Shown here piece after piece: positions 4,802 through 41,355 of a stretch of 64,000 nucleotides of DNA. Numbering within the stretch: position 1 is the first letter of the stretch; each line of letters opens with the position of its first letter. The DNA is taken from assembly GCA_024236075.1 (NCBI GenBank), contig JACKLE010000007.1:2235-66234 (forward strand). The letters are read 5' to 3'. The notes below the pieces were generated by a model. The model saw only the letters and a list, made by a program, of their open reading frames with translations. It was not told where the DNA came from and searched no databases. Both the position numbers and the translations under genes were made by a program. This DNA is from Alphaproteobacteria bacterium. GTDB taxonomy: Bacteria > Pseudomonadota > Alphaproteobacteria > JACAEB01.

Positions 4802-6163
4802 AAGCTCGGCCTCCGATTCGCCGGCGACATGGCGCGTGATGGCGATCGTGGCCTCGAGATAGGCGAGCGCGATCGGGCGCAGCTCCTCCTCCTCTTCCCG
4901 CAGCGCCTGCAGGATGGCGGGCGAATATTCCGCGAGCGAGGCGGTGACGGTGTCGAGCGCCTTCGACACCGCCGTGCCGAACGCCATGTCGGAGGCGATG
5001 CCGCGGCAGGCGACGAGGAGCGCGGCCAGGCTCTCGGCGCGCGCCGACCTCTCGGGATCGAGCGCGCGCGAAAGATCCGCGTGCCGCTCATGGCGCCGCT
5101 TGGGGTTGGGGGAGCGCTTGACCGACAGGACCGCTGCGACCTCGCGCGCCGCCTGGTCGATGAGGCGCTCCATCCGGCCGGCGAGGCGCGAGCGGATCTC
5201 GACGAGGCGCTGCCCCCAGGGCCCGTCGCGCCGAATGTCGATCTCGTGGGTGAGGCCCTGCGAGAGCCTCGCGAAGAGCTGGACCTTCTGCGAGATCTCG
5301 TCCGGGTCCATGCGGCTCGGATCGGTCTGCTCGATGTCGTGGGCGAGCGAGTCGAGATCGTGCAGCAGCATGTCCCCGACGATCCGAAGATCGGTCTGGG
5401 ACGCGAGATAGTCGTTGTGCTGGCGGACGATCTTCGCGACGACCCTGAGGATCTCCCAGGGATGCGCGAGGCGGCCGAGAACGATGAGGGGAACGTAGCA
5501 GGCCTGATCGGGATGGCTGGCGGTGACGGCCTCGAAGACGTCGCGCACATGGGCGGCGCATTCGTCGTCGAGCTGCTGCACGAGGCGCGGAAGGGCCATG
5601 CGCATCTCGGCGGTCTCGGCGGCGATGACGAGGCAGGCGGCGATGTCCTGCGCGTCCTCCAGGGCCTCCTTGCCGCCGAGCTTCGCGGCTATGCCGCTGA
5701 GCTCCTTGGGACCGGCGGCGAGGGCCTCGGACATGGCCGCGCCCGCCTCGCTCCACAGGGCGCCGCAGGCCTCGTCGATGGCCTCGGGCTCGCCCTTGCG
5801 CATCGCGCCGGCGAGATCGTCGGCGCGCGCGGCGACCGCGCCGGCGCGCAGCGCGCGCGCCCAGTCCCAGACCGGCTGAATGGAGCTTCGGGCGATGCGG
5901 CCCTTGAGCTTGCCGCGACCATGCGCCGCGACGAGCAGGTCCTCGAACGGCTCGCAGAAGAGTCGCAAGGGCGTCGGAACGCGCCGCCCATCCCCTTCGG
6001 CCGCGCGCAGAACGGGCCTCAAGCCCTCCAGAATGACGTCGTAGGGAAGCGAATTGCGGCCGGCCAGGCGGTCCATCTCCACGGCGGTCGCGAGCGGAAC
6101 GGCGATCGACGGCGGAAGCTGGCCCAGATAGGCCTTGAGCGCCTTTTCCTTGTCCTTGGTCAT
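4766..6163 (-). CDS. Hypothetical protein (about 465 aa), no recognisable domain
   Basis: Long ORF 4766..6292 with an internal start MTKDKEKALKAYLGQLPPS at 6163. Amino-acid composition is coding-like rather than Arg/Pro-rich shadow. Its 3' end overlaps the GH9-like gene convergently by 36 nt. Confidence 0.6.
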   Translation of the reverse strand: MTKDKEKALKAYLGQLPPSIAVPLATAVEMDRLAGRNSLPYDVILEGLRPVLRAAEGDGRRVPTPLRLFCEPFEDLLVAAHGRGKLKGRIARSSIQPVWDWARALRAGAVAARADDLAGAMRKGEPEAIDEACGALWSEAGAAMSEALAAGPKELSGIAAKLGGKEALEDAQDIAACLVIAAETAEMRMALPRLVQQLDDECAAHVRDVFEAVTASHPDQACYVPLIVLGRLAHPWEILRVVAKIVRQHNDYLASQTDLRIVGDMLLHDLDSLAHDIEQTDPSRMDPDEISQKVQLFARLSQGLTHEIDIRRDGPWGQRLVEIRSRLAGRMERLIDQAAREVAAVLSVKRSPNPKRRHERHADLSRALDPERSARAESLAALLVACRGIASDMAFGTAVSKALDTVTASLAEYSPAILQALREEEEELRPIALAYLEATIAITRHVAGESEAELLRRKGLVAVGS

Positions 6164-6471
6164 GCCGCTCTCTTCGCCGGCCGGGTGCGCCCCCCGGCAC
6201 GCATGGACTCCCAATCGAGGGGCCCAGCCTAGTCGTCGAAGATTTAATGCGGCGTTATCCAAGACGAGCTTTGCTCGCGCCCTGGGGAGCACTGACGGAA
6301 ATCCGCCGTGCAGCTTGGCGAGACCGCTCTCGCGCTTTATAAAGCAGCCAGTTGTCGGGGGTAGACTTCACGACGGGGTTGTCGACCGCCTGCTTCCGCC
6401 GGACGGACGGGCGGCTGAACCGGGCTCTAAGGCCCTCGAAGCGTCGAGGGGCGCGGGCGGGCCGGTGGAGG

Positions 6472-6981
6472 ATGCGGGTGAAACCTAGAGATTTCAGGGA
6501 CTGGCGCAAGACGCTGAAGCTGTCCCAGAAGGAAGCCGCGGACGCGCTCGGGCTGAAGCGCCGCGTGGTCCAATATTACGAGAAGGGCGAGAGGAACGGC
6601 GAGGAGGTGAAAATTCCTCGCACGGTTCAGCTCGCCTGCTGGGCCGTCTGGAAGGGCCACACCGGCAATTGGGACGGCCCCAGCCTCGCCGAGCACGGCA
6701 GCGAGGGCAACAAGAAGCGCAAGAAGAAGAAGGACGGCAAGAAGCGCGACAAGGAGCGCGATCTCCAGATCGCGATGGCCGCCAACGGCGCCGAGATGGC
6801 CGTGGCCGCCGAGGAGCCGGTCCGCAAGTCCAAGGTCAAGCACAAGGACAAGTCGGGCAAGAAGACGCGCGCCCCCGAGGAGGCCGTCCTCGACGGCGCG
6901 CGCCGGCGCAAGGCCCGCCAGGGAAGCGGACAGCTCAAGCGCCGCAAGGGCCAGGGCGGCGGCAAAGCCGCCGCCGAATAG
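6472..6981 (+). CDS. Helix-turn-helix (XRE-like) protein with a lysine-rich, disordered C-terminal tail
   Basis: MRVKPRDFRDWRKTLKLSQKEAADALGLKRRVVQYYEKGER (HTH), followed by NKKRKKKKDGKKRDKERD...KSKVKHKDKSGKKTR. Confidence 0.65.
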   Translation: MRVKPRDFRDWRKTLKLSQKEAADALGLKRRVVQYYEKGERNGEEVKIPRTVQLACWAVWKGHTGNWDGPSLAEHGSEGNKKRKKKKDGKKRDKERDLQIAMAANGAEMAVAAEEPVRKSKVKHKDKSGKKTRAPEEAVLDGARRRKARQGSGQLKRRKGQGGGKAAAE

Positions 6982-7059
6982 GGCCGAGCCGGCGGCAAGG
7001 CCGCCGCCGAATAAGGCCAAGCCGGCGGCAAGGCCGCCGCCGAATAGAGCGGAGCCGGC
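6955..7059. repeat. 33-bp tandem repeat, three copies plus a partial fourth, each containing a GC hairpin and an in-frame stop codon
   Basis: Unit GCCGGCGGCAAGGCCGCCGCCGAATARRGCSRA at 6955, 6988 and 7021. Copy 1 forms the last codons and stop of the 6472..6981 gene. Confidence 0.85.
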
Positions 7060-7082
7060 TCCGCACGCCGGGGGAAGGACGC

Positions 7083-7310
7083 TCAGGCGTCGCTTTGGGG
7101 CGCTTTGTCCTTCGCCCGCCCGATGTTGAGCGCGAGCATCTCGATCACGCGGTAGAGCCGGCCGACCCAGCGATCGTCCGCGGGCGTCGGCGTGAGCGCG
7201 GTGACGGCCGAGGCCGCCGTGACGACCGCGAAGGCGAGATTGAGCCAGGCCGGGGTCTGATCGAAGGGCGCAAGGACGAGGTTTGCGAAGGACTCCATCG
7301 CAGTCTCCAT
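7083..7310 (-). CDS. Small membrane protein, possible holin-like partner of the upstream SleB-like hydrolase
   Basis: 75 aa, METAMESFANLVLAPFDQTPAWLNLAFAVVTAASAVTAL..., with one hydrophobic helix and a charged tail. It lies 66 nt downstream of the hydrolase fragment on the same strand. Confidence 0.45.
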   Translation of the reverse strand: METAMESFANLVLAPFDQTPAWLNLAFAVVTAASAVTALTPTPADDRWVGRLYRVIEMLALNIGRAKDKAPQSDA

Positions 7311-7376
7311 GGTGAGGCCGCCGGCGCGAAGGCCGGCGGCGGGTTGAAGCGGAAAATTGGGGGACCGGCGCGCGCT

Positions 7377-7741
7377 CAGCCGCGCGGGTCGCCGCCCGCC
7401 AAAGCGAGGCTCCGGCCGCCCGGCATGCGATAGAAGCAGAGGCGCCCGAGGAGGGCCGTCGCCCGGCACGCATGGGCCCAGGCCGGCTCCTCGGCGTGCG
7501 GATGGTAGCGCGTCGCGCCGTGTGTCGGGTCGGCGAGGTCGCCCGACCAGACGCGGCAGGCGATGGCGACCGCGCGCGCGAAAGCCGGGTCGGCGAGATC
7601 GGGCCGCGGAAGGGCGCCCTCCCGCAGAATGCCCGCGCATGCCTCGCGCAGGCGCGCGATCGGGGGCTTGGCCGGCTCGACGGACAGGAGCTCGTCGAGC
7701 GCCCGATTGCGGATGGTCCAGGCGACGGCGACCTGGCAGAG
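7377..7741 (-). pseudogene. C-terminal fragment of a SleB-family cell-wall hydrolase, 5'-truncated by IS insertion
   Basis: My minus-strand translation reads LCQVAVAWTIRNRALDEL...ADPTHGATRYHPHAEEPAWAHACRATALLGRLCFYRMPG...*, ending at stop 7377..7379. The reading frame runs directly into the IS3 left end at 7742, with no start codon or N-terminal part. Confidence 0.7.
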
Positions 7742-9013
7742 TGCCCTACCCCCTCTGAAGTGGTCCTGGGACTATGATAGTCGGACCCTGAGAGTGGAGG
7801 CTTGTGATGCCGCGATGAAGGCAAACGGCAGAAGAAATATTGGGAAGCTGCGTGAGGTTGAGGTCCGGATCGGCCGGGGCATGACGGTTCAAGTGGTGAT
7901 CCGTGGGATCGGCGTGACCGAGCAGACCTACTACCGCTGGCGCAAAGAATATGGCGGCCTGAAGCTGGATCAGGCCAAACGGTTGAAGGACCTTGAGAGA
8001 GAGAGAGTAGAGAACGCCCGGCTGAAGAAAGCCGTCGCCGATCTGACACTCGACAAGATGATTTTGACTGAGGCCGCCTCGGGAAACTGGCAGGGCCCTC
8101 GCGCCGCCGGAAGTTCATCGACCATGCCTGCGAGAAGCTCGGTGTCTCCGGACGCCGGGCGTGCCAGGCGGTCGGCCAGCATCGCTCGACGCAGTGGCGA
8201 GCGCCGAGGAAGGCCGACGACGGAGACACGCCGACGGCGACGATCATACGCCTCGCGACGCGCTTCGGGCGTTACGGCTAACGACGCATCACGGCGTTGT
8301 TGAGAGCTGAAGGCTGGCGGGTGAACCACAAGCGTGTTGCGCGCATCTGGCGGCGCGAGAGCCTGAAAGTGCCGGCGCGACACAAGAAGCGCGGCCGTCT
8401 CTGGCTCAATGACGGCTCGTGCATTCGCTTGCGGCCAATGCATCGCAACCATGTCTGGGCCTATGACTTCGTCGAGGACAGAACGCGCGACGGGCGCAAG
8501 ATCCGCATGCTCACGGTGATCGACGAGTTCACGCGGGAATGCCTTGCGATCGAAGTGAACCGCCGCCTTAACAGCCAGGACGTTCTCGCAGTTCTGGCGC
8601 GGCTGTTCCTTGCGTGCGGCGTCCCTGGACATATTCGCAGCGACAATGGCTCCGAGTTCACAGCGAAGGCCGTCAGGAAGTGGCTCGCAATCATGAACGC
8701 GAAGACGCTCTACATCGAACCCGGAAGCCCATGGGAGAACGGCTACAATGAATCGTTCAACGGGAAATTGCGCGACGAATGTCTTAACACGGAGCTATTT
8801 TACTCGCTTCGCGAGGCGTAGATCCTCATCGAGGACTGGCGGCGTGAATATAATGCGATCCGACCCCATTCCTCGCTCGGATATCGTCCGCCGGCGCCGG
8901 AAACCTTTCAGCCGGCCAATCCGGCCTGCGCAATCTGAAAGCTCCAACCGGATCAGCCTTCCGCCGAAGCACGCTTTTCTGTTACATAGAACCCGGCTGC
9001 GCATACGGGGGCA
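7742..9013 (+). mobile_element. IS3-family insertion sequence, copy 1, transposase inactivated
   Basis: The left end is TGCCCTACCCCCTCTGAAGTGG and the right end is ...ACGGGGGCA (TG...CA termini). orfA contains GVTEQTYYRWRKEYGG...RLKDLERE...LKKAVADLTLDK. orfB contains [17 protein letters not shown]...[16 protein letters not shown]...[14 protein letters not shown]...IRSDNGSEF...[21 protein letters not shown]...RPHSSLGYRPPAPE. Confidence 0.85.
7815..8938 (+). pseudogene. IS3-family transposase orfAB with premature stops
   Basis: In the orfB frame, GRYG*RRITALL has a TAA near 8278 where GYRRI is expected, and SLREA*ILIEDWRR has a TAG at 8819..8821. Confidence 0.8.
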
Positions 9014-9121
9014 GGTCACTTCCGCCCACCCAACCCAGGGTAGACTTGCGTCGGTTCTTGTGTAGAGTTTCTATCCTGCCTAGACGGAAGCCGATGTTTC
9101 TCACCAAGGTAGCCGGAGATC

Positions 9122-9337
9122 ATGACAACAGAATCAGGCTCGAAAGGTAGCCGCAAAACGAACCTCGTCTACCTGCAACTGCTGGCGCAAGGTGAGGCTT
9201 TGAACCCGAGACACGCGGAAATGCCAAGTTCTGAGGAGGGTCTTGCGCTCGTGAGAGCCTTCTATGGAATTCGACATCGCGCGGATCGAGCGAAGGTCAT
9301 CGAGCTGGCACAAAAGCTTTTGAAGATTGCCAACTGA
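9122..9337 (+). CDS. Small hypothetical protein (71 aa), paralogue of the next ORF
   Basis: AT-richer ORF. It shares the motif EMPSxEEGLxLxRAFxxIRxxxDRxxVxELAxxLL with ORF 9350..9586. Confidence 0.4.
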   Translation: MTTESGSKGSRKTNLVYLQLLAQGEALNPRHAEMPSSEEGLALVRAFYGIRHRADRAKVIELAQKLLKIAN

Positions 9338-9349
9338 CCGCAGGAACAT

Positions 9350-9586
9350 TTGCGACGAAGGCCCTCATCTCGAAGCGAGGTCAATGTGACAGAGGACAAC
9401 GAGAAGGGGCCACGACGTGTTTGGCTTGCATCCGAATTCGACATTGACCCCGCGCCGAACATTGAAATGCCTTCGCCAGAGGAAGGATTGGAACTTCTAC
9501 GAGCGTTCTTCCGTATTAGGACAAAGAAAGATAGGGTTGCCGTCGTCGAACTGGCTCGGTCGCTTTTGGGTGAAAGCACACGTTGA
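9350..9586 (+). CDS. Small hypothetical protein (78 aa or shorter), paralogue of the previous ORF
   Basis: ...IEMPSPEEGLELLRAFFRIRTKKDRVAVVELARSLL aligns with the C-terminal half of ORF 9122..9337. The start codon is uncertain. Confidence 0.4.
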   Translation: MRRRPSSRSEVNVTEDNEKGPRRVWLASEFDIDPAPNIEMPSPEEGLELLRAFFRIRTKKDRVAVVELARSLLGESTR

Positions 9587-9671
9587 CACCAAGAGCGTCA
9601 CATTGGAGGGACTGGTAGTCCTCGACCCTGCTAAGCTGTTCTATCCTCTACAAATTTGCCCGATGCCCAGC

Positions 9672-9905
9672 TCAATTGAGTTTGAGTTTGCTGTCTCCAA
9701 TGTCAGTAACAAGATGAGCGCCATCGCTATCGTCTGTTAGTCTGAGTTCGCGAACGGCCTCTAGCCGCGCCATTTCGAGAAGGTAGGCCAATAGCCCGAG
9801 GTCACACTTTCCCGCTAGTGCTTTCAGAGCAGTGGTGAGTTCGGAAATGTGAACCAAAGCGTTGTGACGTTCGCATTCGTTTTGCCATTCATATTCTGAT
9901 GACAT
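9672..9905 (-). CDS. Small hypothetical protein (77 aa) downstream of the dioxygenase gene
   Basis: ORF on the same strand, 35 nt downstream of the phyH-like stop, with the same AT-richer composition. No recognisable motif. Confidence 0.35.
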   Translation of the reverse strand: MSSEYEWQNECERHNALVHISELTTALKALAGKCDLGLLAYLLEMARLEAVRELRLTDDSDGAHLVTDIGDSKLKLN

Positions 9906-9940
9906 GTTCTCATTCCCTATCTCTATCGGCCCCGCGCGAT

Positions 9941-10840
9941 CTATGCTGCCGCGCGCCCGTCGCTGGGCTTGAGGAAACCGCTGAGAATTCTGTCCATCTC
10001 GGGCGACAGGACGTCGTCTGCGGAGATATCAGCCGATCCCTGCAGCGGCAGTAGGTCCATTGGATCTCGGCATTCAAATAGCCCGAGGTTGGGGCGGTGA
10101 GCGGCATAGCCAATCAACGAGGCTAGTTCCGGTGGCAGATTGCGAGCGACATCAAGAGGCACTGCGAGGTATTGATTTTCATACTGACGGAGCCAGCCCA
10201 GATTGTAGCCCATTACAACTCCGATCCGGGGTTCGTTGGAGTTGTTTGCTCCCGCTCCGTGGACAGTCGAACCAAGATAGAGCAGGGCGCTGCCCGGCTG
10301 CATCTCAGCTGCCACGGGTTCAATATCCCTTTGTGCGTTTGTTGCACTCCATAGGTGGCTTCCCGGGACGACGTGGGTCCCGCCGTTCTCCCTTGTGAAC
10401 TTCGTAAGGGCCCACATCACGTTCACCATGGGCTCGATCGCGGCAGGACAGTACGGATACATCCCGCGGTCCCTATGCAGGACCTGCGCGATTTCGCCTG
10501 GCAACACGGCGATTGCCTGAGTGATGTGCAGCTGAAACCGCTCACATTGCGTGAGAGTCAGCGACATGGTTCTCAGGATCGATGCTTGCAGAGCGAGAAC
10601 GTGCGTAGACGGACTCTTGGCGACGAGTCCGTTTACACGTTTCGTATTTAGTCCAACAAAGATGCCCTGACCTGGCGGAGTCTTCTCCAGTAGAGGCGCT
10701 ATCTCCTTTTCAATGGCGTCCATCTGCGCTGCCGGCGTTAAGCCCTCGACAATGACACAGCCTGATTGGACTAGTTGGGCCCGGATATCCTCGGGCGGCG
10801 CATCGGCGCCGAGGCGAGGAACGCCCTGACTCGCTGTCAT
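9941..10840 (-). CDS. Phytanoyl-CoA dioxygenase (PhyH) family Fe(II)/2-oxoglutarate-dependent oxygenase
   Basis: 299 aa with an HxD motif (QVLHRDRG), a distal His (GSTVHGAGAN) and a general PhyH-like layout (GTHVVPGSHLW). Its ATG at 10838..10840 directly abuts the luxI stop at 10841..10843. Confidence 0.8.
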   Translation of the reverse strand: MTASQGVPRLGADAPPEDIRAQLVQSGCVIVEGLTPAAQMDAIEKEIAPLLEKTPPGQGIFVGLNTKRVNGLVAKSPSTHVLALQASILRTMSLTLTQCERFQLHITQAIAVLPGEIAQVLHRDRGMYPYCPAAIEPMVNVMWALTKFTRENGGTHVVPGSHLWSATNAQRDIEPVAAEMQPGSALLYLGSTVHGAGANNSNEPRIGVVMGYNLGWLRQYENQYLAVPLDVARNLPPELASLIGYAAHRPNLGLFECRDPMDLLPLQGSADISADDVLSPEMDRILSGFLKPSDGRAAA

Positions 10841-11515
10841 CTAGGCCGCCCGCTGCTGGTGCTTCTTGAGGACGTCGGCATGAACGGTGCGCGCGGCAAT
10901 GATGCCTTCCGCCGATACGATGGGTTCCTTCAAGCCCAGGAATGCTCGAACGGACTCAAGGCTGAGGTCTTCAAAGTCGACTTTGACGCCTATGACCTCC
11001 AGGTCACCCATGGTCACGGGAAGACCCATCGCGGTTGCCTTGAAGCCGGTCGCCACCATTCTCTGAAAGCGCCAGAGCTCGACCACGGCTGTCACGCCCT
11101 TCAATCCGAGTGCGCAGGCGGTTTCCAGCCACCCGATGTGAATTTCGATCGTGACCGGGTTGGGTCGGCCGAGCTTCTTTGTCTCCGGCGCAACGACGAT
11201 ACGGCTGACGTCATAGATCTCCGGATCGCTGGGAACTCCATAGCGATCAAAAAGGTTCGGAAAATGCTTGGCTGACAGCGTCGTCAGATTTGACGCAGCG
11301 AGTCGAACGCAACCGACAACTCCATCGCATTCGGCACGCGTGCTGACAACGTAGATTGTGTGTGCGTGGTCACTTTCGTCAATGTCGCGGCCATCGGGCT
11401 TGTAGACCTCTTCCCAACCCATCTGTTCAAAGAGGACTCGATGACGAAGGCGAAACATCTGGTCGAATTTGACTTCGTGTTCATGACGGTTGCCGCTCGT
11501 TAGGATTGTGATCAT
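10841..11515 (-). CDS. luxI: Acyl-homoserine-lactone synthase (LuxI family)
   Basis: MITILTSGNRHEHEVKFDQMFRLRHRVLFEQMGWEEVYKPDGRDIDESDHAHTIYVV...VSRIVVAP matches the autoinducer-synthase signature RxRxxVFxxxxGW...E.D.(F/S)D. A GGAGGG Shine-Dalgarno precedes the ATG at 11515. Confidence 0.9.
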   Translation of the reverse strand: MITILTSGNRHEHEVKFDQMFRLRHRVLFEQMGWEEVYKPDGRDIDESDHAHTIYVVSTRAECDGVVGCVRLAASNLTTLSAKHFPNLFDRYGVPSDPEIYDVSRIVVAPETKKLGRPNPVTIEIHIGWLETACALGLKGVTAVVELWRFQRMVATGFKATAMGLPVTMGDLEVIGVKVDFEDLSLESVRAFLGLKEPIVSAEGIIAARTVHADVLKKHQQRAA

Positions 11516-11599
11516 CAAACCCTCCATGAATTGTAGACGGAGGGAATTGGACGCGAACCGATGGCGTTCGGCCATTCTCTGAACGGAGGTAATTTGTGT

Positions 11600-12322
11600 T
11601 CAGATTCGGAGGAGGCGATGCCTCAACGCCTCGATCACCGCGGATATTCGTCGCTTTGCGCCGAGCTTTCGCTTCGCGTTCTCGACGTGCATATGGACAG
11701 TGGTCTCGCTAATCGTAAGAATTTCTCCGATCTCGGAATCTGATCGCCCTGTTGCAACCCAAGCTAAGATTTCGCGCTCGCGTCCGGTTAGGTTTGGTGC
11801 CTGCTCAATCAACGGATTTGCGAGGCTCAGGATTCGTGCATGTGTGTAGACACCGAGCAAACGGAGTATTTGCGAAACAGATGGGTCGTCATCGACGCGT
11901 GGGCCCGCAAATGCCGCTGCAGCGAAGTAGCCGTTAGGCCCTAGAATTGGAAATGCGTAGCCATCCGAGAGGCCAAACTCCTTCCCCTCGTTCAATATCT
12001 GCCATCCCTTGGTCCTTGGCCTTGTCTTTTCACGAATTTCTTTCCACGGGATACCACCCCCCCCTTCCATCAATGTCGTAACTACTGGATCAAAATATCT
12101 ATATTTATTTACGAAATACCTATTTCTCCATTCTAAATCATAGTTCAACATCCACCCGTGATCGCGTGATACTAGTCCTGCAAGGGGGCATACGACAAAA
12201 TATTCTATACCGAACGCATTTAAATTTTTTTCGATCAACGCCTTAAGTTCTGTTTCTGTCGTGGCACCTTCCATGTTCTCAAGAAGATCGAAGAATTTCT
12301 TTTTTGCGGTCGCGTCTGACAT
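11600..12322 (-). CDS. luxR: LuxR-family quorum-sensing transcriptional regulator (autoinducer-binding domain plus GerE HTH)
   Basis: 240 aa. The N-terminal domain carries the conserved W...Y...DP...W...G pattern (EWRNRYFVNKYRYFDPV, GIPW). The C-terminus reads LTGREREILAWVATGRSDSEIGEILTISETTVHMHVENAKRKLGA. Confidence 0.9.
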   Translation of the reverse strand: MSDATAKKKFFDLLENMEGATTETELKALIEKNLNAFGIEYFVVCPLAGLVSRDHGWMLNYDLEWRNRYFVNKYRYFDPVVTTLMEGGGGIPWKEIREKTRPRTKGWQILNEGKEFGLSDGYAFPILGPNGYFAAAAFAGPRVDDDPSVSQILRLLGVYTHARILSLANPLIEQAPNLTGREREILAWVATGRSDSEIGEILTISETTVHMHVENAKRKLGAKRRISAVIEALRHRLLRI

Positions 12323-12408
12323 TGTGTTCTCGATCTTGCCTGGCCCAGCTTGAACATCATCGTATTGATGCGCATCCTGCGTGCCTGGGCAACAGGGGTC
12401 GAATTGTA

Positions 12409-12440
12409 AGTCCGTATGATGAACGTTTACATGACGGACT
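12409..12440. promoter_or_regulatory. Imperfect 32-bp palindrome upstream of luxR, candidate operator
   Basis: AGTCCGTATGATGAACGTTTACATGACGGACT has half-sites AGTCCGT / ACGGACT and lies about 90 nt upstream of the luxR start. Confidence 0.3.
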
Positions 12441-12471
12441 GTCCTAGTTGATCGCCATTTCGGACTGGCTA

Positions 12472-13317
12472 GGTAGGGGACTCATTTGATCCACGCGACG
12501 ACGATGGCTGCGAGAGCGATTGCGGAGATGTAGTTTTGCGCGAGACGGTCATATCGCGTTGCGATGCGCCGCCAGTTTTTGAGCTTGCAGAACAGTCTCT
12601 CCACGACGTTGCGTCGTTTGTAGGCCGTTTCGTCGAGCGGATAGGGGACGGTGCGGGAGGCCGTTGAGGGAATGACGGCCTTGATCGTTCTGCTCTTGAG
12701 GTAGGAGCGAAAATGCTCCGCGTCATAGGCTCTATCGGCAAGCAGCCGCTTTGGGGCCAGGACCGCGTCGACGAGCGGCTTGGCCATGGTGATGTCGGCG
12801 ACATTGCCCGGCGTCAGGGCGAAGGCGACCGGCCTGCCGCAATCATCGGCCAGACAGTGGATTTTGCTTGTTCTGCCGCCGCGCGAGCGCCCAATCGCTT
12901 GCGCTTCCTCCCCCTTTTTCCGCCTGCGGCGGAGCGGTGGGCTTTGACATGGCTGCTATCGAGCGACAGCTCTTCGGGGACAGGTCCTGCGGCCGCCATT
13001 TTGGCGAACAGGCGTTGCCAGACCCCTCGGGCAGACCATCGATTGTAGCGGTTGTAGATCGTCGTATAGGGTCCGTACTCGGACGGACAATCCCGCCACC
13101 GGCATCCGGTCTTGAGAACATGCAGGATGCCGCTCATCACGCGCCGGTCATCCACACGCGGCTTGCCCGGCTTTCCGCGCGGCAGATGCGGGTCGATGAG
13201 AGCCCAGGCTTCGTCGGACAGCCAAAACAGATGCGACATCTCGGTCTCCTCGGGTAGTCGAACCCAAAAGGAAACTGATTTGCACAAAGAATCAATGCTT
13301 TGTATGAGTTCCCAACC
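12472..13317 (-). mobile_element. IS5-family (IS427-group-like) insertion sequence, apparently intact
   Basis: The terminal inverted repeats are GGTAGGGGACTCAT (left) and, as the reverse complement of the right end, GGTTGGGAACTCAT. The flanks are cTA and TAg, consistent with insertion into CTAG with TA duplication. It encodes a two-frame transposase. Confidence 0.85.
12482..13239 (-). CDS. IS5-family transposase (orfA-orfB joined by a putative programmed -1 frameshift)
   Basis: orfA reads MSHLFWLSDEAWALIDPHLPRGKPGKPRVDDRRVMSGILHVLKTGCRWRDCP...HVKAHRSAAGGK. At GGAAAAAGGGGG the other frame continues ...QAIGRSRGGRTSKIHCLADDCGRPVAFALTPGNVADITMAKPLV...LFCKLKNWRRIATRYDRL. Confidence 0.8.
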
Positions 13318-13576
13318 TAGGGCGTACTTCGCAATTGTTGCTGCGTTCGGCGGGTTCATTTGGTCCGTGAGGGTGGTGCAGATGGGACAGGTTGAGACCC
13401 GTGAGCGCAGCTGGCGATTGACGCGCACGTCGAGCATACCCATTCGCATGCCGCCGCTCGGGTGGTCGCGCTTCAGCGGGTCGACGACGAGGAGGGTGCA
13501 GTCGTTTGGACGCGCATCCTAAGAGCGACTGTTTGGCTTTCAGATGGCAGCGATCACGGCGAATTGCAGCGACTGT

Positions 13577-13870
13577 TCAAAGCTGAACATCGTGCGTCGT
13601 CAGGAATCGCGTCAACTCTCCGAGCGACACGATTGTCGGGCTCAAGTTCTGAAGTGACCCGAGCTGACCGTCGTCAGGCAAAGTACCCGTCAGCACACCG
13701 GCGACATGGCCAGTGTCCAGATCCACAATGGGTCCGCCGAAGAACGAACCGACATTCTCGCCACTGTCTATAGTGGGCCATTCCTTGATTGCCCATCGCC
13801 CTCGCTTTGCCTCCAGCCTTCCAGCGATCGTGACGATTGACGGAACGGGGCGGTTTTTCCTTGAGACGCC
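13577..13870 (-). pseudogene. Possible C-terminal fragment of a trypsin-like peptidase, 5'-truncated by IS3 copy 2
   Basis: My minus-strand translation reads ...IVTIAGRLEAKRGRWAIKEWPTIDSGENVGSFFGGPIVDLDTGHVAGVLTG...HDVQL*. This resembles a GxSGGP...G.V.G serine-protease C-terminus with a degenerate active-site box. The frame runs into the IS end at 13871. Confidence 0.3.
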
Positions 13871-15167
13871 TGCCCTACCCCTTCTGAAGTGGTCCTGGGA
13901 CTATGATAGTCGGACCCTGAGAGAGGAGGCTTGTGATGCCGCGATGAAGGCATACGGCAGAAGAAATTATTGGGAAGCTGCGTGAGGTTGAGGTCCGGAT
14001 CGGCCGGGGCATGACGGTTCAAGTGGTGATCCGTGGGATCGGCGTGACCGAGCAGACCTACTACCGCTGGCGCAAAGAATATGGCGGCCCGAAGCTGGAT
14101 CAGGTCAAGCGGCTGAAGGACCTTGAGAGAGAGAACAGTCGGCTGAAGCGGGCTGTTGCCGATCTCACGCTCTATGCTCTGATCCTGAAAGAAGCCGAAA
14201 AGGGAAACTTCTAAGCCCCGCGCGTCGCCGGCGAGCGATCCGGTATGTCCGCGAGACCATCTGCGTATCGGAGCGTCGGGCATGCCGGGTATTCGGTCAG
14301 CATTGCGCGACCCAACGTAAGATCGCCAGGACGCCTGACGATGAAGACGCCTTGGCGGGCGACATCATCGAGCTGGCGAAGACCTATGGACGCAATGGCT
14401 ACCGTCGGATCACGGCCCTACTCAAAGAGGCGGGCTGGGCCGTGAACCACAAGCGGGTCGAACGGATCTGGCGGCGTGAGGGGCTAAGAGCGCCTGCGAG
14501 ACAGCGCAAACGGGGTCGGCTCTGGCTCGACGATGGGTCTTGCCTCCGGCTGAGACCGGAATGCCGCAACCACGTTTGGACGTATGATCTTGTCGAGGAC
14601 CGCACCCAAGAGGGAAAGAAGATCCGCATGCTCACCGTCATCGATTCGTTCAGCCACACATGCCTGGCTATCACCGTCGAACGGTGCCTGAACAGCGGCA
14701 ACGTGCTCGACACCTTCGCGGATCTCTTCCTCGAGCATGGGCCGCCCAAGCACATTCGTCCGGACAACGGCCTAGAGTTCATTGCGACCGCCGTGCGGAA
14801 TGGCTCGCCCATATCGGCGTGAAGACGCTCTACATCGAACCGGGCTCACCTTGGGAGAACGGGTACAACGAGTCCTTCAACGGGAAGACTCCGCGATGAG
14901 CTGCTGAGCGGAGAGATCTTCTCGACGCTGAAAGAGGCCCAGACCCTGATCGAAGCATGGCGCCGTCACTACAACACCGTCAGGCCTCACAGCGCCTTGG
15001 GATACAGCCCGCCCGCGCCAGGGGCCTTCGCTCCCATGATCTTCCCAACAGCTCGACCCAAGGAGCTGGGTCTCCTGTCCGTCCTTGAGGTCGTAGAGGT
15101 CGAGCATCTCGCCGATCTCGGGATGGCCATGCCGAGCGTTCCCAACCAAGTTTCAACATGGGGGGCA
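13871..15167 (+). mobile_element. IS3-family insertion sequence, copy 2, transposase inactivated by several frameshifts
   Basis: The left end is TGCCCTACCCCTTCTGAAGTGG and the right end is ...CATGGGGGGCA. Transposase similarity is spread over at least 4 ORF fragments (13944.., 14011..14214, 14352..14822, 14660..14899, 14997..) in different frames. A 1-bp insertion (AAATTATTGGG versus AAATATTGGG in copy 1) truncates orfA after 13 codons. Confidence 0.85.
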
Positions 15168-15365
15168 GATCAACGCCGAGCTTTCCCGTCGAGCGCCGGT
15201 CCCCTCATCCTGTCCTTCTCCCGAGGGAGAAGGAACCCGGGCGGCAGCGCCGCGCGGGAGAGCGGCGTCCGCGCAGCGTCCGCCTGGCGTCCCCGCATCG
15301 TCCGGACGCAGTTCGTCAGATAGCGCCCAGATGGTTTCGAGCGTCACGCTCGTCAAGAGGCGATT

Positions 15366-15899
15366 TTACGGATTGCGTGAATTTTCGCGCGCGCGCCGCC
15401 AGCGGCCGGCGAATTTGGCGCGGTCGACGCGGCGCGGCCAGGCGACGACGCGGTCGGGCCATTTCGCCTCCGGGACGGCGGTCTCGCAGACGACGCGCCC
15501 GCGCACGGAGCAGCCCGCCGCCGCGACGCTGCCCTTGTCGCCCGTCACGAGCGGATGCCAGTCGGGCAGCGCCCGCCCCTCGTGGAGGCGGCGATAGGCG
15601 CAGCTCGGTGGCATCCAGGGCGCGGCCTCCGCGATCGTCTCCGGCGTCAGGCGCACGCAGCCCGGCACGCGCGCCGAGCGGTTGGGATAGTCCGAGCAGC
15701 GGCAGCTCGCCTCGTCGAGCAGCTGGCAGACGATGTCGGTGTAGGAGGTCGCGCCCGTGTCCTCGTCCTCGAGCTTGATGAGGCAGCAGAGCGCGCAGCC
15801 GTCGCAGAGCGCCTCCCATTCGGCGGGCGTCATCTCCGAGAGGCTCTTCTCCTCCCAGAAGCGTCCTTCGGCGATCTTTTCCCGCGATGACGGTTTCAT
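15366..15899 (-). CDS. YcgN/UPF0260-family cysteine-cluster protein
   Basis: MKPSSREKIAEGRFWEEKSLSEMTPAEWEALCDGCALCCLIKLEDEDTG...CQLLDEASCRCSDYPNR...GC. Confidence 0.85.
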   Translation of the reverse strand: MKPSSREKIAEGRFWEEKSLSEMTPAEWEALCDGCALCCLIKLEDEDTGATSYTDIVCQLLDEASCRCSDYPNRSARVPGCVRLTPETIAEAAPWMPPSCAYRRLHEGRALPDWHPLVTGDKGSVAAAGCSVRGRVVCETAVPEAKWPDRVVAWPRRVDRAKFAGRWRRARENSRNP

Positions 15900-17981: not shown

Positions 17982-18496
17982 GGCGCGTGCGGGCGGGGGC
18001 TGGATTCTGTTTGAAGCGTCCCACAATCGTGACGTCATCCCGCGCTTCAGGCGCGGGACCCATACTCCCGGCGTTTGTGGTCGTGCGTTCCGCGGTCGAG
18101 CCGCAGCACGACTGCCGCAGTCGGGCGATCAGAATTGATCGCGACACGCTCCAGGTCCGGTCATGACTTCTTGAACAGGTCCTGTTGTCTGCCTTGTGCT
18201 TCGCGCTTCGCCTTCTTGAACGGCGTGGTGTCGATCCAAGGCATAGGCGGGCGCTTGCCCTCGAATAGATCCTCAATAGTCAGAATTCGGATCCTTGAGA
18301 ACTGACCATACTCGGTTTCATAGTAACCAGCAGAAATCGCTTCCTTCCGCATCGGCGCCGTCGGCTCGGTCAACGTGAGGAAGATTCCAAGTTTTGCTTT
18401 CTCGCGCTCTACCGTTGCGATGAGGGGGACCTATATACGAGCTTGACCCAGCCGCCGTGACATCCTATATTCTGAGGGTGGCAATGGAGAGGCGCG

Positions 18497-19411
18497 ATGA
18501 CCAAGCAATTCGACAGCCTGATTGAGCTGATGGAAGCGCTCCCGGATGAGCAGTCCGCGATTGACCACTTCACCGCCATACGTTGGAAGGATGGGGCTTT
18601 CTGCCCCCATTGCGGCTCGACCAAGATCTATCACTTCAGCGACAAGCGTTCGCACAAGTGTGGGGCCTGCCGAGCGCGCTTCTCAATCAAAGTCGGAACG
18701 ATCTTCGAGGACACGAAGATCCCATTGCGCAAGTGGATGATGGCTATTTGGCTTATCACGTCGCACAAGAAAGGCATCGCGAGCACGCAACTGGCTAAGG
18801 ACATCAAGGTCACTCAGAAGACCGCATGGTTTATGCTCCACCGCCTTCGCCATGCCGCGATGACGAAATCCTTCAGCGCGCCTCTCAAGGGTACCGTCGA
18901 AGCTGACGAGACCTATGTTGGCGGTAAGGCCAAGAACAAGCACGCATCCAAGCGTGAGAAGGGTACGCAAGGTGGAAGGGGCAAGGTGATTGTCTTTGGG
19001 ATGCTGGAGCGCGAGGGCCAGCTTCGCACGCTGCATATCAGCAATCTAAAGGCGCACAACGTACACGGCATTATCTCCGACCATGTCGAGCCCGGCGCCA
19101 ACATCATGACAGACGAACATGTTTCGTTTGTGGGGCTTCAAGGGCGCTATCACCATCACACCGTCAACCACTCAGCCGGCGAGTACGTGCGCCATTTCTT
19201 CGCCCACACGAACGGAATTGAGAGCGTCTGGGCGCTTCTGAAGCGTCAAATTATTGGGATACATCATTGGGTTAGCCAAAAGCACCTTTCACGCTATCTC
19301 GGAGAGATGGCATGGCGCTACAATCGTCGGAACTTGGAGGAAGGCGACCGTTTGAACGCCTTGCTTTCGTCAACAGATGGGCGGCTCACCTATCGAGCCT
19401 TGGTTGCATGA
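18497..19411 (+). CDS. IS1595-family transposase (N-terminal zinc ribbon plus DDE domain)
   Basis: 304 aa, with FTAIRWKDGAFCPHCGSTKIYHFSDKRSHKCGACRARFSIKVGTIFEDTKIPLRKWMMAIWLITSHKKGIASTQLAKDIKVTQKTAWFMLHRLR...EADETYVGG... Confidence 0.9.
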   Translation: MTKQFDSLIELMEALPDEQSAIDHFTAIRWKDGAFCPHCGSTKIYHFSDKRSHKCGACRARFSIKVGTIFEDTKIPLRKWMMAIWLITSHKKGIASTQLAKDIKVTQKTAWFMLHRLRHAAMTKSFSAPLKGTVEADETYVGGKAKNKHASKREKGTQGGRGKVIVFGMLEREGQLRTLHISNLKAHNVHGIISDHVEPGANIMTDEHVSFVGLQGRYHHHTVNHSAGEYVRHFFAHTNGIESVWALLKRQIIGIHHWVSQKHLSRYLGEMAWRYNRRNLEEGDRLNALLSSTDGRLTYRALVA

Positions 19412-19659
19412 CAATGCGAAAGAAGCAGTCACAGAAAAAGCAGACAAAAAAGGAGTTGGTCGGGATGCCTTTTGATGAGGCATTGGAACGCTTTATCCTA
19501 ACCGACCCGGATGAATTGTCCGAGGCGCTGCAATCCTATGACGCCTTGAAAGAGGAACATGATCGCTTGTCTGACGATGTTGATGCCGATCAGGACCGAG
19601 TTATTCGCCGAATGAGGGGGAAGGCAGCCGATGGCAAAGTCAAAAAAAGAACAGACTGA
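19408..19659 (+). CDS. Passenger ORF 1: small, highly charged hypothetical protein (83 aa)
   Basis: Its ATG overlaps the transposase stop (ATGA). The sequence MTMRKKQSQKKQTKKELVGMPFDEALERFILTDPDELSEALQSYDALKEEHDRLSDDVDADQDRV... has a basic N-terminus and an acidic helical middle. Confidence 0.5.
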   Translation: MTMRKKQSQKKQTKKELVGMPFDEALERFILTDPDELSEALQSYDALKEEHDRLSDDVDADQDRVIRRMRGKAADGKVKKRTD

Positions 19660-20485
19660 ACAATCGGTTTTGGATTTCCTTTATGTCGATGCAGTTCGTG
19701 TACGATCCTTTATTTCGCAGCTTGGTGAGATAGGTGTTCTTGACGGGGTGACAGAAACGGACGCATTGGACGCATCCAAGGCAACCACCTTTTCAGGGTC
19801 AATTGGTGGCGAACCTATCATTGGTTCGGGCGTCGAGAGGACAAGCGAGCGAGCCACATCAGAATCACAATCGCGAACCTACGATGTGCAGCACCGGCTT
19901 CCGGTTAGTCTCCTCAATTTGCTAGAAACGCAAAACTTAATTCAACGAAAAATTGTCGATGCCGCGATAGGTGACTTAGTTGTCTGCTCTGGAACATTAT
20001 CGATAATCGATACTTCATTCCATCGTGAGCTTTATTCGTCAGCTAAGATGAAGGAACTTTCTGTTCGGCGATCAGAGGAAAGACTCAAAAAAGAGGGGCA
20101 GACGTATGACCTGGAAAGTCTGCACATCGAACTTGATATGATCCGCATGATCCCGCCCTTTGTGCAGGCCCTAGTAGATACTGGCAATGTTGCCGTATGG
20201 CTTACCTTGCGACCGGAGAGCCTCACAACGCCTCCTCACGAGATCAACATGAAACACGGGGTTGTGCTTCAAGGTAGTTGGACATTGCTTGGTATCAAAG
20301 ACTCTACTCCTTCTCTTGCGCCCGAAATTTTGCAGGATGCAACTCGACTCAAGGGCCGATTTGAAAACCAATCAATGATCGCTGAGATGATCGATGTGCT
20401 CACTGCATTGCGCGGGTATGTGGGACGACCGCCATCCTCATATGGGGTGACACCGCTTCTAATTTACAGAGAAGCTAACACCTAG
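19631..20485 (+). CDS. Passenger ORF 2: hypothetical protein (284 aa), no family recognised
   Basis: It overlaps ORF 1 by 29 nt and its stop (20483..20485) lies in the partial extension of the right inverted repeat (...TGACC), 8 nt before the core repeat at 20494. The N-terminus is MAKSKKEQTEQSVLDFLYVDAVRVRSFISQLGEIGVLDG... AT-richer codon usage is continuous with the transposase. Confidence 0.65.
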   Translation: MAKSKKEQTEQSVLDFLYVDAVRVRSFISQLGEIGVLDGVTETDALDASKATTFSGSIGGEPIIGSGVERTSERATSESQSRTYDVQHRLPVSLLNLLETQNLIQRKIVDAAIGDLVVCSGTLSIIDTSFHRELYSSAKMKELSVRRSEERLKKEGQTYDLESLHIELDMIRMIPPFVQALVDTGNVAVWLTLRPESLTTPPHEINMKHGVVLQGSWTLLGIKDSTPSLAPEILQDATRLKGRFENQSMIAEMIDVLTALRGYVGRPPSSYGVTPLLIYREANT

Positions 20486-20837
20486 GTCACACACGTATAT
20501 AGGCCCCCGATGAGGTCACGGATCATCCCTACTCCAACGTTCTCGCCGCCCTTCACGGATACCACTGCCTTCTCCGTCACCTTCCCGTCAGGCTTGAAAA
20601 AGCACGTTGTAGGAGGCGTTCGAGTTGAAGGGCGGGTCGAGATAGACGAGGTCGACGGATTCGTCGGCAATGTGCCCACGGAGAATGTCGAGATTGTCGC
20701 CATAGTATAGCTTGTTCGTCATCCGCCCCGCCCTGCCCGATCCGCCGTCGCGACTTGGTGGCTCAAGATTCCGCTTGCGCGGAAATTTCTATTGGCGCAT
20801 TGTGTTCTTGTTTTGTTCGATTCGCAAGGAGGCCTCG

Positions 20838-21014
20838 ATGGCAACGAATCCGCCGCCCGGCGACGGCCACCGCAAGGGTGCGGTGCGCGATCGCTCCCAG
20901 GTCTACAATCCGCAGAACGAGAAATGGACGAAGCGCGACAAGGGCACGGGGCAGTTCATGGACCAGAAAGCCGATTCCAAGCCGTTCAAAGGGGTTCGCA
21001 AAGAGCGCCCCTAA
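20838..21014 (+). CDS. Small hypothetical protein (58 aa)
   Basis: An AGGAGG Shine-Dalgarno lies 5 nt upstream of the ATG. The sequence is MATNPPPGDGHRKGAVRDRSQVYNPQNEKWTKRDKGTGQFMDQKADSKPFKGVRKERP. Confidence 0.5.
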   Translation: MATNPPPGDGHRKGAVRDRSQVYNPQNEKWTKRDKGTGQFMDQKADSKPFKGVRKERP

Positions 21015-29633: not shown

Positions 29634-31334
29634 CTAGATTGCGCTCAGGCTTTCGGGACAGGTGCTTCGCGGCTCCGCCTCAAGATATCCCGCAAACTGC
29701 TTCACGATGCCCTGATCGACGAAGATGTGATCCTCGAGCCAGAAGATGAGCGTGCGCAGGCCTCGGTCCCCGTAGTAGGTGCACACGAGTACCCTCGTGC
29801 CCGTATTGTAGACGGCGCCTGCCGCCTCGAGGAGATGGTTCGTCTGTCCGAGGTGCCTGGTATTGCCCAGGGCCGGGATCACCGCCGACGTCACTTCATA
29901 TTGCTTGAGCGCTCCGGCCACCCGCGTTCCCGTCACCAGCGTCGCCTCAACGACCAGCGTTTCCTTCGATATCGAGATCTTGGGCGCCTTGTCGGGCGGC
30001 ATGAAGGCGTAGAGCCGTTGCTCAAAACCGCGGCCCTCTGTCACGCGGGCCGGGTACTTGTCGCCGTCGATCTTCTGCGGCACCCCCGAGATGTGATCGT
30101 GGACCGTCTGCATGAACGCCTCGCCGACCGGCTTGCAGGCGTTGAGCCGGAGGAACTCCCTGAGGTCCACGGAGAATTTGTTGACCTCTCTGATCTTGGC
30201 GTAGAGATAGCCGACCATGTCGCGGTCGATTGTGCCCTCGCCGCCATATTGATAGTGCGCAAGAATGGTGGGGATGAACGAGGTGTACCTCTCGCGGTAG
30301 AGCGCGGCGTATCTTCTGTTGAGCGTCAGGGTCTTGCCCTCGACCTGCTTGTAGTAGTTTGTCTGGAAATCGACCGGATAGGTGTGACTCCGCTCGGAGC
30401 CGACATATTTGTTGTATACGGGTGTGAAGGTTGTCGCCTCGCCGGCGCCGATTGACGCGCCGCAGACGTCGCTATAGGCCTCGACGATGCTGGGATAGGC
30501 GAGGCTCAGGAATTCTTTGACGTCCCTCTCCTTGTCGTACGTATCGAACTGAAATTTCGCTTGGGATCCGTAGGCCATCGCCAGAAAGGTCGGCGCGAAT
30601 TCAGACGCGGCCGTCTTGACCTGCACCTTTCCGTAAAGGCTGCCCGGCGGATAGAGGTTCTCATACCGCACCGTCGGCGGCGGTGCCGGCTTCATGAGAT
30701 CGGGCACCTCGAAGGCCGGGAACTCGGTCGTCACGACGAGCGCATCGTCCGCATACGCCCGGCGCGCGAACAGGATTTGCACCGTCGCGGGATTCGTCTG
30801 CTGCTTGAGCAGCGACAGCTTGCGAAGGAAATCGATCTTGCCGTAGACGCCGTCGTCCCCGAGGCTCTTCAGGATGTCGCCGGGCTGCACGCCATAGGTC
30901 GCCATCTTGCCGCCCGGAACGAGGCTTTTCACGAATAGGGCGTTGAATTCGTTCGGTGGCGGCGTCCCGTACTTCTGCAGCCGGCTGTTGAAGTGTTCCT
31001 CGTCGCGCGTCGCCGGGTTCGGAATGGGTGTCGTGCGCTGGCCTCCATACATGTTGACGCGGCCTTCGCCGAATTCGACGCCCCACGCCGCTTCGACCGC
31101 TCTCAGCTCCTTGCCGGTCTCGGCCTCGTATTGCAGGGGCTTGATCTCCGCCCTGCGGTCGATCGTGCGGTTCGCGGGTAGCGTCGCGGCCCCGGGTCCG
31201 ACGGCCTGCGGCAGCGCCGCGGCACCGCCGGTGCGCCGCGGCAGGCTGTCGGCCTGGGCCATAGCCTCGAAAGGCAGAAAGCCAATAGACACGGCCAATG
31301 CAAAAAGAATCGCCCCTCCGTACACGTCGCGCAT
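29634..31334 (-). CDS. Hypothetical secreted protein (about 566 aa) with a short PDZ-like stretch
   Basis: Signal-like N-terminus MRDVYGGAILFALAVSIGFLPFEAMAQA. The segment VKSLVPGGKMATYGVQPGDILKSLGD resembles a PDZ carboxylate-binding region. The rest is unrecognised. Composition looks somewhat AT-richer than the neighbours. Confidence 0.6.
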   Translation of the reverse strand: MRDVYGGAILFALAVSIGFLPFEAMAQADSLPRRTGGAAALPQAVGPGAATLPANRTIDRRAEIKPLQYEAETGKELRAVEAAWGVEFGEGRVNMYGGQRTTPIPNPATRDEEHFNSRLQKYGTPPPNEFNALFVKSLVPGGKMATYGVQPGDILKSLGDDGVYGKIDFLRKLSLLKQQTNPATVQILFARRAYADDALVVTTEFPAFEVPDLMKPAPPPTVRYENLYPPGSLYGKVQVKTAASEFAPTFLAMAYGSQAKFQFDTYDKERDVKEFLSLAYPSIVEAYSDVCGASIGAGEATTFTPVYNKYVGSERSHTYPVDFQTNYYKQVEGKTLTLNRRYAALYRERYTSFIPTILAHYQYGGEGTIDRDMVGYLYAKIREVNKFSVDLREFLRLNACKPVGEAFMQTVHDHISGVPQKIDGDKYPARVTEGRGFEQRLYAFMPPDKAPKISISKETLVVEATLVTGTRVAGALKQYEVTSAVIPALGNTRHLGQTNHLLEAAGAVYNTGTRVLVCTYYGDRGLRTLIFWLEDHIFVDQGIVKQFAGYLEAEPRSTCPESLSAI

Positions 31335-31667
31335 GATATTATTTTCCTTCCGTACAATCATCGATGCATTCCGTTGGGAAACTCGGCAAGGGAATTCCCC
31401 CGGAACGACGAAAATGTCGAAGCCAACCGTCATGCTAACGGAAATCGGATGGATTGATATAGAAGCCTAGCCTCGGCCGTCGGAGCCGGTATTGCCCACG
31501 AACACCGTGGCTTCCGTCTGTCCTGCCGAGCTCGTGGGCCCCGCATACGGCGGGAGCGGGCCGATCCTCTCGCGCCGGCGTCAGGCCGGCCGGCTCCGGT
31601 CCGGAGGATTGGCCTCATCGGCCGCGCCGGGCTATGAATCGATCTAATTTCATTCGTTGGAGCGAAT

Positions 31668-40829: not shown

Positions 40830-40934
40830 GGCCCGCCGATGGCCTCCAAACGCCGAAGGGGCGCGATGATCGCCGATTCTCGCCGGCGCGCCCGCCTTCA
40901 GCCTTTCGTTGAGGCGGCGCGCTTCCTATATTGC

Positions 40935-41290: not shown

Positions 41291-41355
41291 TCCCTCGCCT
41301 TCCGCCATGTCTCCGCCACGAACGGGCCCTCGCCGTGCCATTTTGAAACGGTGGC

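Follow-up and report, generated by a model that had tools for sequence, protein, structure and literature searches.

We describe an island in a stretch of 64,000 nt of contig JACKLE010000007.1 from an alphaproteobacterium; we call the whole stretch the window, and all coordinates are window positions. The segment 7742-15167 carries a quorum-sensing operon, luxR-luxI-phyH, between two insertion sequences (IS) of the IS3 family, labeled IS_L on the left and IS_R on the right. It is probably a genuine, recently acquired accessory island that was assembled piecemeal by insertion sequences, rather than one composite transposon. As such it is a fairly ordinary IS-riddled accessory island, with a new luxR-luxI-phyH representative of a known module type. 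What is mildly new lies in the details: corrected ends for the insertion sequences, a target duplication at IS_R, a mosaic IS_L, and a luxI-phyH pair with a BjaI/RpaI-like synthase outside the sphingomonads.

Composition and edges of the island

The segment contrasts strongly in composition with its surroundings. Its G+C content is 57.5%, against 71.1% in the left flank and 71.5% in the right flank; the cargo alone has 55.8%, and each IS3 element about 61%. At third codon positions, luxR, luxI, phyH and the small open reading frames (ORFs) of the cargo range from 0.46 to 0.67 G+C, and PBP1A, ycgN, a fragment of an endolysin gene and other backbone genes from 0.88 to 0.95. All 2-kb windows within 7501-15500 lie above a threshold of tetranucleotide distance that was derived from the remainder of the window. 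An earlier note, made from the letters of the sequence, had described the cargo as less GC-rich than the backbone and had proposed sliding G+C and k-mer profiles as a check: the profiles of the island do differ from those of the backbone. Counted per 60-nt line, mean G+C is 34.5/60 in the island and 42.0/60 in the backbone, and a recount of line 12121 gave exactly the 25/60 that the note had reported. Its list of cargo genes also holds, since every gene is present and Pfam agrees.

Scans for other kinds of landmarks returned little. Pfam finds no integrase domain among the island ORFs, and no tRNA gene lies in or adjoining the island, the single RNA-gene match being a transfer-messenger RNA (tmRNA) at 40.9 kb; a classical tRNA-linked, integrase-borne genomic island was thus ruled out. 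The Rfam scan has no match inside the island, the PADLOC and PHROG scans have none among the cargo ORFs, and the promoter and terminator scans stay at chance level.

Both flanking elements have the hallmarks of the IS3 family: an OrfA with a helix-turn-helix (HTH) domain and an OrfB with an rve domain in the -1 frame (Pfam HTH_Tnp_1, rve and rve_3), a frame relation visible in each element when OrfA and OrfB of an intact relative are used in tblastn. Their ends were placed by aligning both elements with five plasmid IS3 relatives, each about 70% identical, whose inverted repeats read TGAGCTGCCCCCTTCTGAGTGGTCC... and ...GGACCAC..GGGGGCTGCTCA. In this alignment the termini of both elements are TG...CA, namely TGCCCTACCCC... 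and ...GGGGGCAG(G/A)TCA. IS_L, in which Pfam recognizes HTH_Tnp_1 and rve, is a decayed element at 7742..9018 on the + strand, with a right end ...GGGGGCAGGTCA. IS_R occupies 13871..15172, also on the + strand: it is 1302 bp long, has both inverted repeats and a decayed transposase, and its right end is ...GGGGGGCAGATCA. The left ends given in the earlier note, 7742 and 13871, are kept, and its right ends, 9013 and 15167, are moved to 9018 and 15172.

The nearest kin of the two elements are the "ISMex5 family" IS3 of Methylorubrum and unnamed IS3 elements on sphingomonad, Afipia and Sulfitobacter plasmids, and the kin of both are mostly found on alphaproteobacterial plasmids. They have in common with IS_L and IS_R the OrfA/OrfB arrangement in the -1 frame, a length of about 1.25-1.3 kb and inverted repeats of the form TG....CCCCC..TGAAGTGGTCC, and some of these kin show short duplications; however, nucleotide identity is only about 70%, and both copies in the window are decayed. 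The earlier note had declared both transposases dead, and indeed they are, because stops and frame breaks interrupt each of them. By tblastn with the intact relative, a TGA at OrfA codon 4 is common to both elements, OrfB of IS_L has two in-frame stops, and OrfB of IS_R has an out-of-frame block of about 90 nt, including a stop, over a conserved stretch of 11 residues.

The comparison of the two elements with each other is instructive. Pairwise alignment shows that the first 258 nt of IS_L (7742..7999, + strand) are 97% identical to IS_R 13871-14128, with 8 differences, and that a (GA)n run near 8000 marks an abrupt fall in identity, to about 62%. The left inverted repeats are nearly identical, and the right ends have in common only the terminal 12 nt or so, GGGGGCAG-TCA.

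The junctions differ as well. Given its corrected end, IS_R is abutted on both sides by a 5-bp direct repeat, ACGCC, at 13866..13870 and 15173..15177; the chance of a 5-nt identity flanking a segment of this size is 0.24% of window positions. This repeat implies that IS_R inserted independently, and that, before this insertion, the low-GC DNA at its left ran directly into the DNA at its right. Junction comparison reveals no direct repeat around IS_L (GCAGAG on the left, CTTCCG on the right), and none around the whole unit when the corrected ends are used (GCAGAG on the left, ACGCCG on the right). Thus, when the earlier note found no matching target duplication, it was right about the whole unit, and the flank sequences that it quoted, GGCAGAG and GATCAAC, are correct; what it missed is that IS_R has a repeat of its own.

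To the right of IS_R, 193 nt lead to ycgN (15366..15899, - strand), the first backbone gene on that side, whose translation has the CxxCxxCC domain in Pfam. On the left, the border is a truncated SleB-like gene, as the earlier note had seen, cut exactly at 7741/7742. What remains, at 7376..7741 on the - strand, are the C-terminal 122 codons of a Hydrolase_2 (SleB-like) phage-type cell-wall hydrolase, recognized from its translation by Pfam: the fragment matches positions 52-100 only of the Hydrolase_2 profile (E 9.7e-5), has weak PHROG endolysin matches, and has a backbone-like third-codon G+C of 0.90. The N-terminal part was not found in the right flank, where the joined sequence was looked at, nor in the 64 kb by two narrow searches, a tblastn with one homolog and motif regular expressions. 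The lack of a duplication at IS_L, together with the cut endolysin gene, suggests an IS-mediated deletion or a recombination between insertion sequences.

In the interval 6352-7741, which has backbone composition, the truncated endolysin is accompanied by a 75-aa membrane protein that matches phrog_9685 and by an HTH_3 protein whose tail is rich in lysine and arginine. Because its neighbors are a phage-family membrane protein and an HTH regulator, the endolysin fragment may have been part of an old phage-like lysis cassette. Three 33-nt tandem repeats, at 6949-7059, overlap the end of the HTH gene and extend just past it.

A third insertion sequence, 846 bp long, lies inside the island at 12472..13317 on the - strand, 149 nt upstream of luxR. 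It belongs to the IS5 family: Pfam places DUF4096 and DDE_Tnp_1_2 at 12482-13449(-), the reconstructed 252-aa product matches DUF4096 (8.2e-29) and DDE_Tnp_1 (1.4e-20), and its kin, about 73% identical, have the annotation IS5 family transposase. Its inverted repeats, GGTTGGGAACTCAT and GGTAGGGGACTCAT, match at 12/14 positions, and TA stands on either side of the element, in a CTAG context. To judge from its sequence, the element looks intact, with an OrfA and a frameshifted OrfB and no other lesions; no near match was found among plasmids. An independent Logan short-read contig, L081, stops 25 nt inside it (at 12496), which suggests several IS5 copies in the sample. The earlier note had concluded that the quorum-sensing module is now immobilised: this is supported by the dead IS3 transposases, and contradicted by the apparently intact IS5-family element.

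Between this element and IS_R, abutting the left end of the latter, the C-terminal part of an ORF remains at 13577..13870 (- strand), with island-like G+C and the motif GSFFGGPIVD. It has no Pfam match and no tblastn match among plasmids. A protease-like assignment was dropped, since one motif was its sole basis.

Competing accounts of the origin

The scenario that we favor is one in which a foreign core, made of the luxR-luxI-phyH operon and two small genes convergent with it, would have been framed and interrupted by three separate IS events. The IS5-family element would have inserted upstream of luxR with a TA duplication, and IS_R at the right margin by ordinary transposition, giving its 5-bp duplication. 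IS_L would form the left junction, the foreign DNA having been joined to the backbone through an IS-mediated deletion or a recombination between insertion sequences, and the 258-nt patch would then be a tract of conversion or recombination between IS3 copies.

The earlier note had likened the structure to a composite transposon. In classical composite transposons, such as Tn9, Tn10 and Tn5, two copies of one IS surround a cargo, within an outer duplication. Transposed to this island, such an origin would mean that the left end of IS_L and the right end of IS_R once moved the cargo together, and that the duplication and the transposases decayed later. The likeness is real: two elements of the same family, in the same orientation, surround accessory genes of foreign composition, their left inverted repeats hardly differ, the terminal GGGGGCAG-TCA is found at both right ends, and transposases have been reported near luxR-luxI-phyH loci of sphingomonads. 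However, the pair is not made of two copies, with about 62% identity outside the 258-nt patch, and neither flanking element has a working transposase. The outer duplication is missing, IS_L has no repeat, and of the two IS_R alone is flanked by a duplication, a repeat of 5 bp that a composite move would not leave. In addition, the other half of the truncated endolysin gene is not on the right side. The search for the same cargo between other IS copies or on plasmids, which the earlier note had proposed, found none at the DNA level: a megablast of the whole island against 72,556 plasmids matched the IS sequence alone (about 71%), and look-ups of the exact LuxI and PhyH proteins found them only in this metagenome-assembled genome (MAG) and in Logan contigs of the runs behind it, with SRR12358676 shown and 2 samples listed. 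Because the elements are unlike, IS_R has its own repeat, the outer repeat is absent and the unit is found nowhere else, we regard a composite origin as very improbable. The lesson for annotation is that the ends, the identity between copies and the duplication of each element should be checked before a composite transposon is called.

Several observations weigh against the scenario of piecemeal assembly. The switch in composition falls at the very insertion site of IS_R, a coincidence that one would not quite expect if a simple insertion had landed at random. The target duplications of two relatives of IS_R are 4 bp long (CGAC and GATC), against 5 bp at IS_R: a short duplication is thus expected for this group of IS3 elements, and the length at IS_R is off by one base. 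No close relative is present among the matches listed, the best YcgN being 66% identical in species-representative genomes and 65% in metagenome contigs; with neither a close relative nor an island-free site among these matches, insertion relative to an ancestor is deduced from composition only. Collinearity between the window and the closest locus among them, L001, extends from 23848 to the ycgN stop; beyond that stop L001 has no sequence in common with the window, no low-GC DNA and no island. Synteny consequently stops at the right border of the island, without a clean empty site. As for the operon, a search upstream of luxI and of luxR, tolerating one mismatch, found no lux-box palindrome of at least 7 bases. 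To these points are added the source of the sequence, a 117-kb contig of a MAG, and the behavior of independent assemblies: the exact-protein look-ups return only short Logan contigs of SRR12358675 and SRR12358676, all ending at or near IS elements, and these independent contigs stop at 8734, 12496 and 15205, so that no IS is spanned and the left junction is without confirmation from an independent assembly.

The last two points also feed the suspicion of an assembly artefact, in which near-identical IS sequence would have led the assembler to connect backbone and cargo, or to leave out DNA between them. The left junction, if not the position of the island altogether, would then be absent from real cells. 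The sharp mosaicism of IS_L exactly where it is 97% identical to IS_R, its lack of a duplication and the missing N-terminal part of the endolysin are what such an error could leave behind. Against it, the ACGCC repeat, with its low chance, ties the low-GC side to the ycgN side; the 8 differences within the patch mark it as a distinct copy; and the unique 3' 285 nt of IS_L are contiguous with the cargo in the independent contig L081. An artefact therefore seems unlikely to us. It can be observed that two contigs from different runs, L088 and L089, share an end at 15205, and that this point lies 33 nt beyond IS_R instead of some 30 nt within it: this break may be a strain polymorphism, or a true border of the island with an island-free haplotype in the sample.

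Another way to account for the hybrid nature of IS_L and its lack of a duplication is an integrated plasmid, or a remnant of an integrative and conjugative element. The quorum-sensing module and IS_L-type DNA would have come in on a replicon that recombined with an IS3 element residing in the endolysin gene, producing the hybrid IS_L, and later deletions would have removed the rest of the replicon. The module is elsewhere plasmid-borne or located beside a relaxase gene, and the relatives of both IS3 elements, being mostly on plasmids, fit such a source. On the other hand, no replication, partition, conjugation or integrase gene is present among the island ORFs, the reciprocal hybrid IS that such a recombination should leave is missing, IS_R is flanked by a duplication of its own, and beyond IS sequence the 72,556 plasmids hold no match at the DNA level. 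This origin is, in our judgment, rather doubtful.

The quorum-sensing operon and its relatives

Under the favored scenario of a foreign core later framed by insertion sequences, the operon is the heart of the cargo. The genes luxR, luxI and phyH follow in that order on the - strand, with phyH directly after luxI. The first, at 11600..12322, encodes a full-length LuxR-type receptor and regulator of 240 aa, with both Pfam domains, Autoind_bind (3.4e-24, 85.5 bits) and GerE (5.5e-17, 61.6 bits); its residues 11-230 align with RhlR over the full length. The second, at 10841..11515, encodes a LuxI-type acyl-homoserine-lactone synthase of 224 aa that matches Autoind_synth (6.3e-17; 62.2 bits for a cutoff of 24) and aligns over its full length with BjaI. 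We follow the public record (P0001) for its start, MITILT; the open frame reaches upstream to 11575.

The TAG of luxI directly abuts the ATG of phyH (TAGATG). The latter gene, at 9941..10840, encodes a PhyH-family Fe(II)/2-oxoglutarate dioxygenase (Pfam PhyH, 4.1e-27) with the HxD motif (H122, D124) and the downstream histidine of VHGAG; its relatives in the PDB are TlxJ, AusE and PrhA. A 77-aa ORF, orf77, follows 35 nt downstream, at 9672..9905 on the same strand. It is present in the ORF list and as a gene call in the Logan contig L081; no family match was found for it, and it has no similarity to the small ORF after phyH in L097, a metagenome contig presented below. The operon luxR, luxI, phyH, orf77 is apparently intact, judging by its reading frames.

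Among solved structures, the synthase is closest to BjaI (5w8a, E 4.6e-24, 88 bits) and RpaI (6wn0, E 5.6e-23, 85 bits), with far weaker matches to TofI (4.5e-8) and LasI (2.2e-5). BjaI/BjaR of Bradyrhizobium, which works with isovaleryl-homoserine lactone, and RpaI/RpaR of Rhodopseudomonas, which works with p-coumaroyl-homoserine lactone, contain LuxI enzymes that use acyl-CoA. These two are the best matches, yet distant ones, and a word-indexed search of 5.8 billion proteins found the synthase itself and otherwise relatives at 35% identity or less. We know of no phyH partner described for the BjaI or RpaI systems.

It is thus natural to conjecture that LuxI makes an acyl-homoserine lactone, probably from acyl-CoA since its closest matches are BjaI and RpaI. 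The PhyH-type dioxygenase would oxidise the acyl chain, either in the precursor or in the signal itself, and LuxR would sense the product. That these genes form a working circuit of this kind, with PhyH acting on the acyl precursor or on the signal, is something that we infer only.

The gene order luxR, luxI, phyH recurs in the loci L097, L098, L101 and L102. The two closest PhyH homologs whose context was looked up, both 51% identical, come directly after luxR-luxI: one is in L097, an unrelated 908-kb metagenome contig whose LuxI and LuxR are 45% and 39% identical to those of the window, and the other, in L098, lies near a TrwC relaxase gene, HipA and an IS3 fragment. In the latter locus, a second and very divergent LuxI-like gene (5915-6577, 220 aa, no Pfam match on record) comes after phyH. 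On sphingomonad plasmids the order is luxR-luxI-phyH-gntR, with PhyH 43-44% identical. Both the closest homologs and the plasmid copies thus place the PhyH of the island in a group linked to luxI. The earlier note had proposed that the module was horizontally acquired, and the occurrence of such modules on plasmids and beside relaxase or transposase genes speaks for it.

The synteny luxR-luxI-phyH, or novR-novI-phyH, was published for Sphingomonadaceae by Gan et al. in 2013, 2015 and 2016 (PMC3704786, PMC4288048, PMC5012321); these papers report nearby transposases and describe the PhyH reaction as still uncharacterised. Compared with the loci of that family, among them plasmids pBSY18_2 of Blastomonas and pMC4 of Sphingopyxis, the island has the same gene order and strand, a phyH that abuts or overlaps the end of luxI, and mobile elements nearby. 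However, the LuxI of the window is only about 22% identical over 170 aa to the synthase of the Blastomonas plasmid, the only one compared, and its LuxR is 27-28% identical. In place of gntR, the island has the 77-aa ORF and the two convergent small genes, and the MAG that hosts it is that of an unclassified high-GC alphaproteobacterium rather than a sphingomonad. Membership of LuxI in the NovI lineage was ruled out, by the 22% identity to that one synthase and by the closer match to BjaI and RpaI.

We now turn to the two small genes, which are on the + strand and converge on the operon. Small ORF 1, at 9122..9337, encodes 71 aa and is annotated as a hypothetical protein, H6923_08000, in the public MAG. 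Its tandem paralog, small ORF 2, is at 9350..9586, with 78 aa from a TTG, or 66-69 aa from the GTG at 9377. The two are true paralogs, at 45% identity (E 5e-16), and searching 1.84 billion proteins with a profile built from both yields 34 representatives at E<=1e-3. This family has members of 46-121 aa, all with the motif PSxEEGLxLxRAF...DRxxVIELAxxL, and those in the named collection are unnamed or hypothetical. Of three member contexts viewed, two show the gene standing alone; the third, at 3547-3735 of L188, an uncultured Bradyrhizobium contig, shows it arranged as in the window, convergent with and adjoining luxI-luxR. The profile found no further members in the other luxI loci fetched, so that the link between the small ORFs and quorum sensing rests on two loci. 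A weak match to the profile (E 9e-4), at 55772-56203 and far from the island, is probably due to chance.

Neighboring features and wider meaning

The window has a second low-GC island, at 18000-21000 with 53.7% G+C, separated from the first by the PBP1A-ycgN pair. It includes an IS1595-family transposase (18497-19411), a DUF6414 / phrog_9699 protein (19631-20485) and a 100-aa ORF (20712-21014) with a match to the PADLOC candidate PDC-S38 (E 2.4e-32) over its C-terminal 57 aa. For this island an empty site is at hand: the distance from PBP1A to DUF1465 is about 590 nt in L001 versus 3.1 kb in the window, which makes L001 the empty site. A third and milder dip in G+C (about 62%), at 29634-31433, extends over a minus-strand ORF of 599 aa. 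The tmRNA gene mentioned above is of the alphaproteobacterial permuted, two-piece type; it occupies 40900-41292, with the tag peptide ANDNYAEVRLAA.

Beyond this one genome, the interest of the island lies in the partnership of phyH with luxI. One could speculate, and we give the idea little more than an outside chance, that PhyH is a dedicated signal-tailoring enzyme linked to two very different LuxI lineages, one being the sphingomonad NovI type and the other the BjaI/RpaI-like type, which occurs in this island as well as in L097 and L098. A CoA-type LuxI paired with it might then yield an undescribed oxidised, for example hydroxylated, acyl- or aryl-homoserine lactone, and the small PSxEEGLxLxRAF proteins might be a new accessory regulator. 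Independently of that idea, the luxR-luxI-phyH synteny reaches beyond the sphingomonads and beyond one lineage of LuxI. This wider synteny strengthens the case for a bacterial PhyH reaction tied to signal chemistry, and the island offers a compact three-gene unit suitable for expression.

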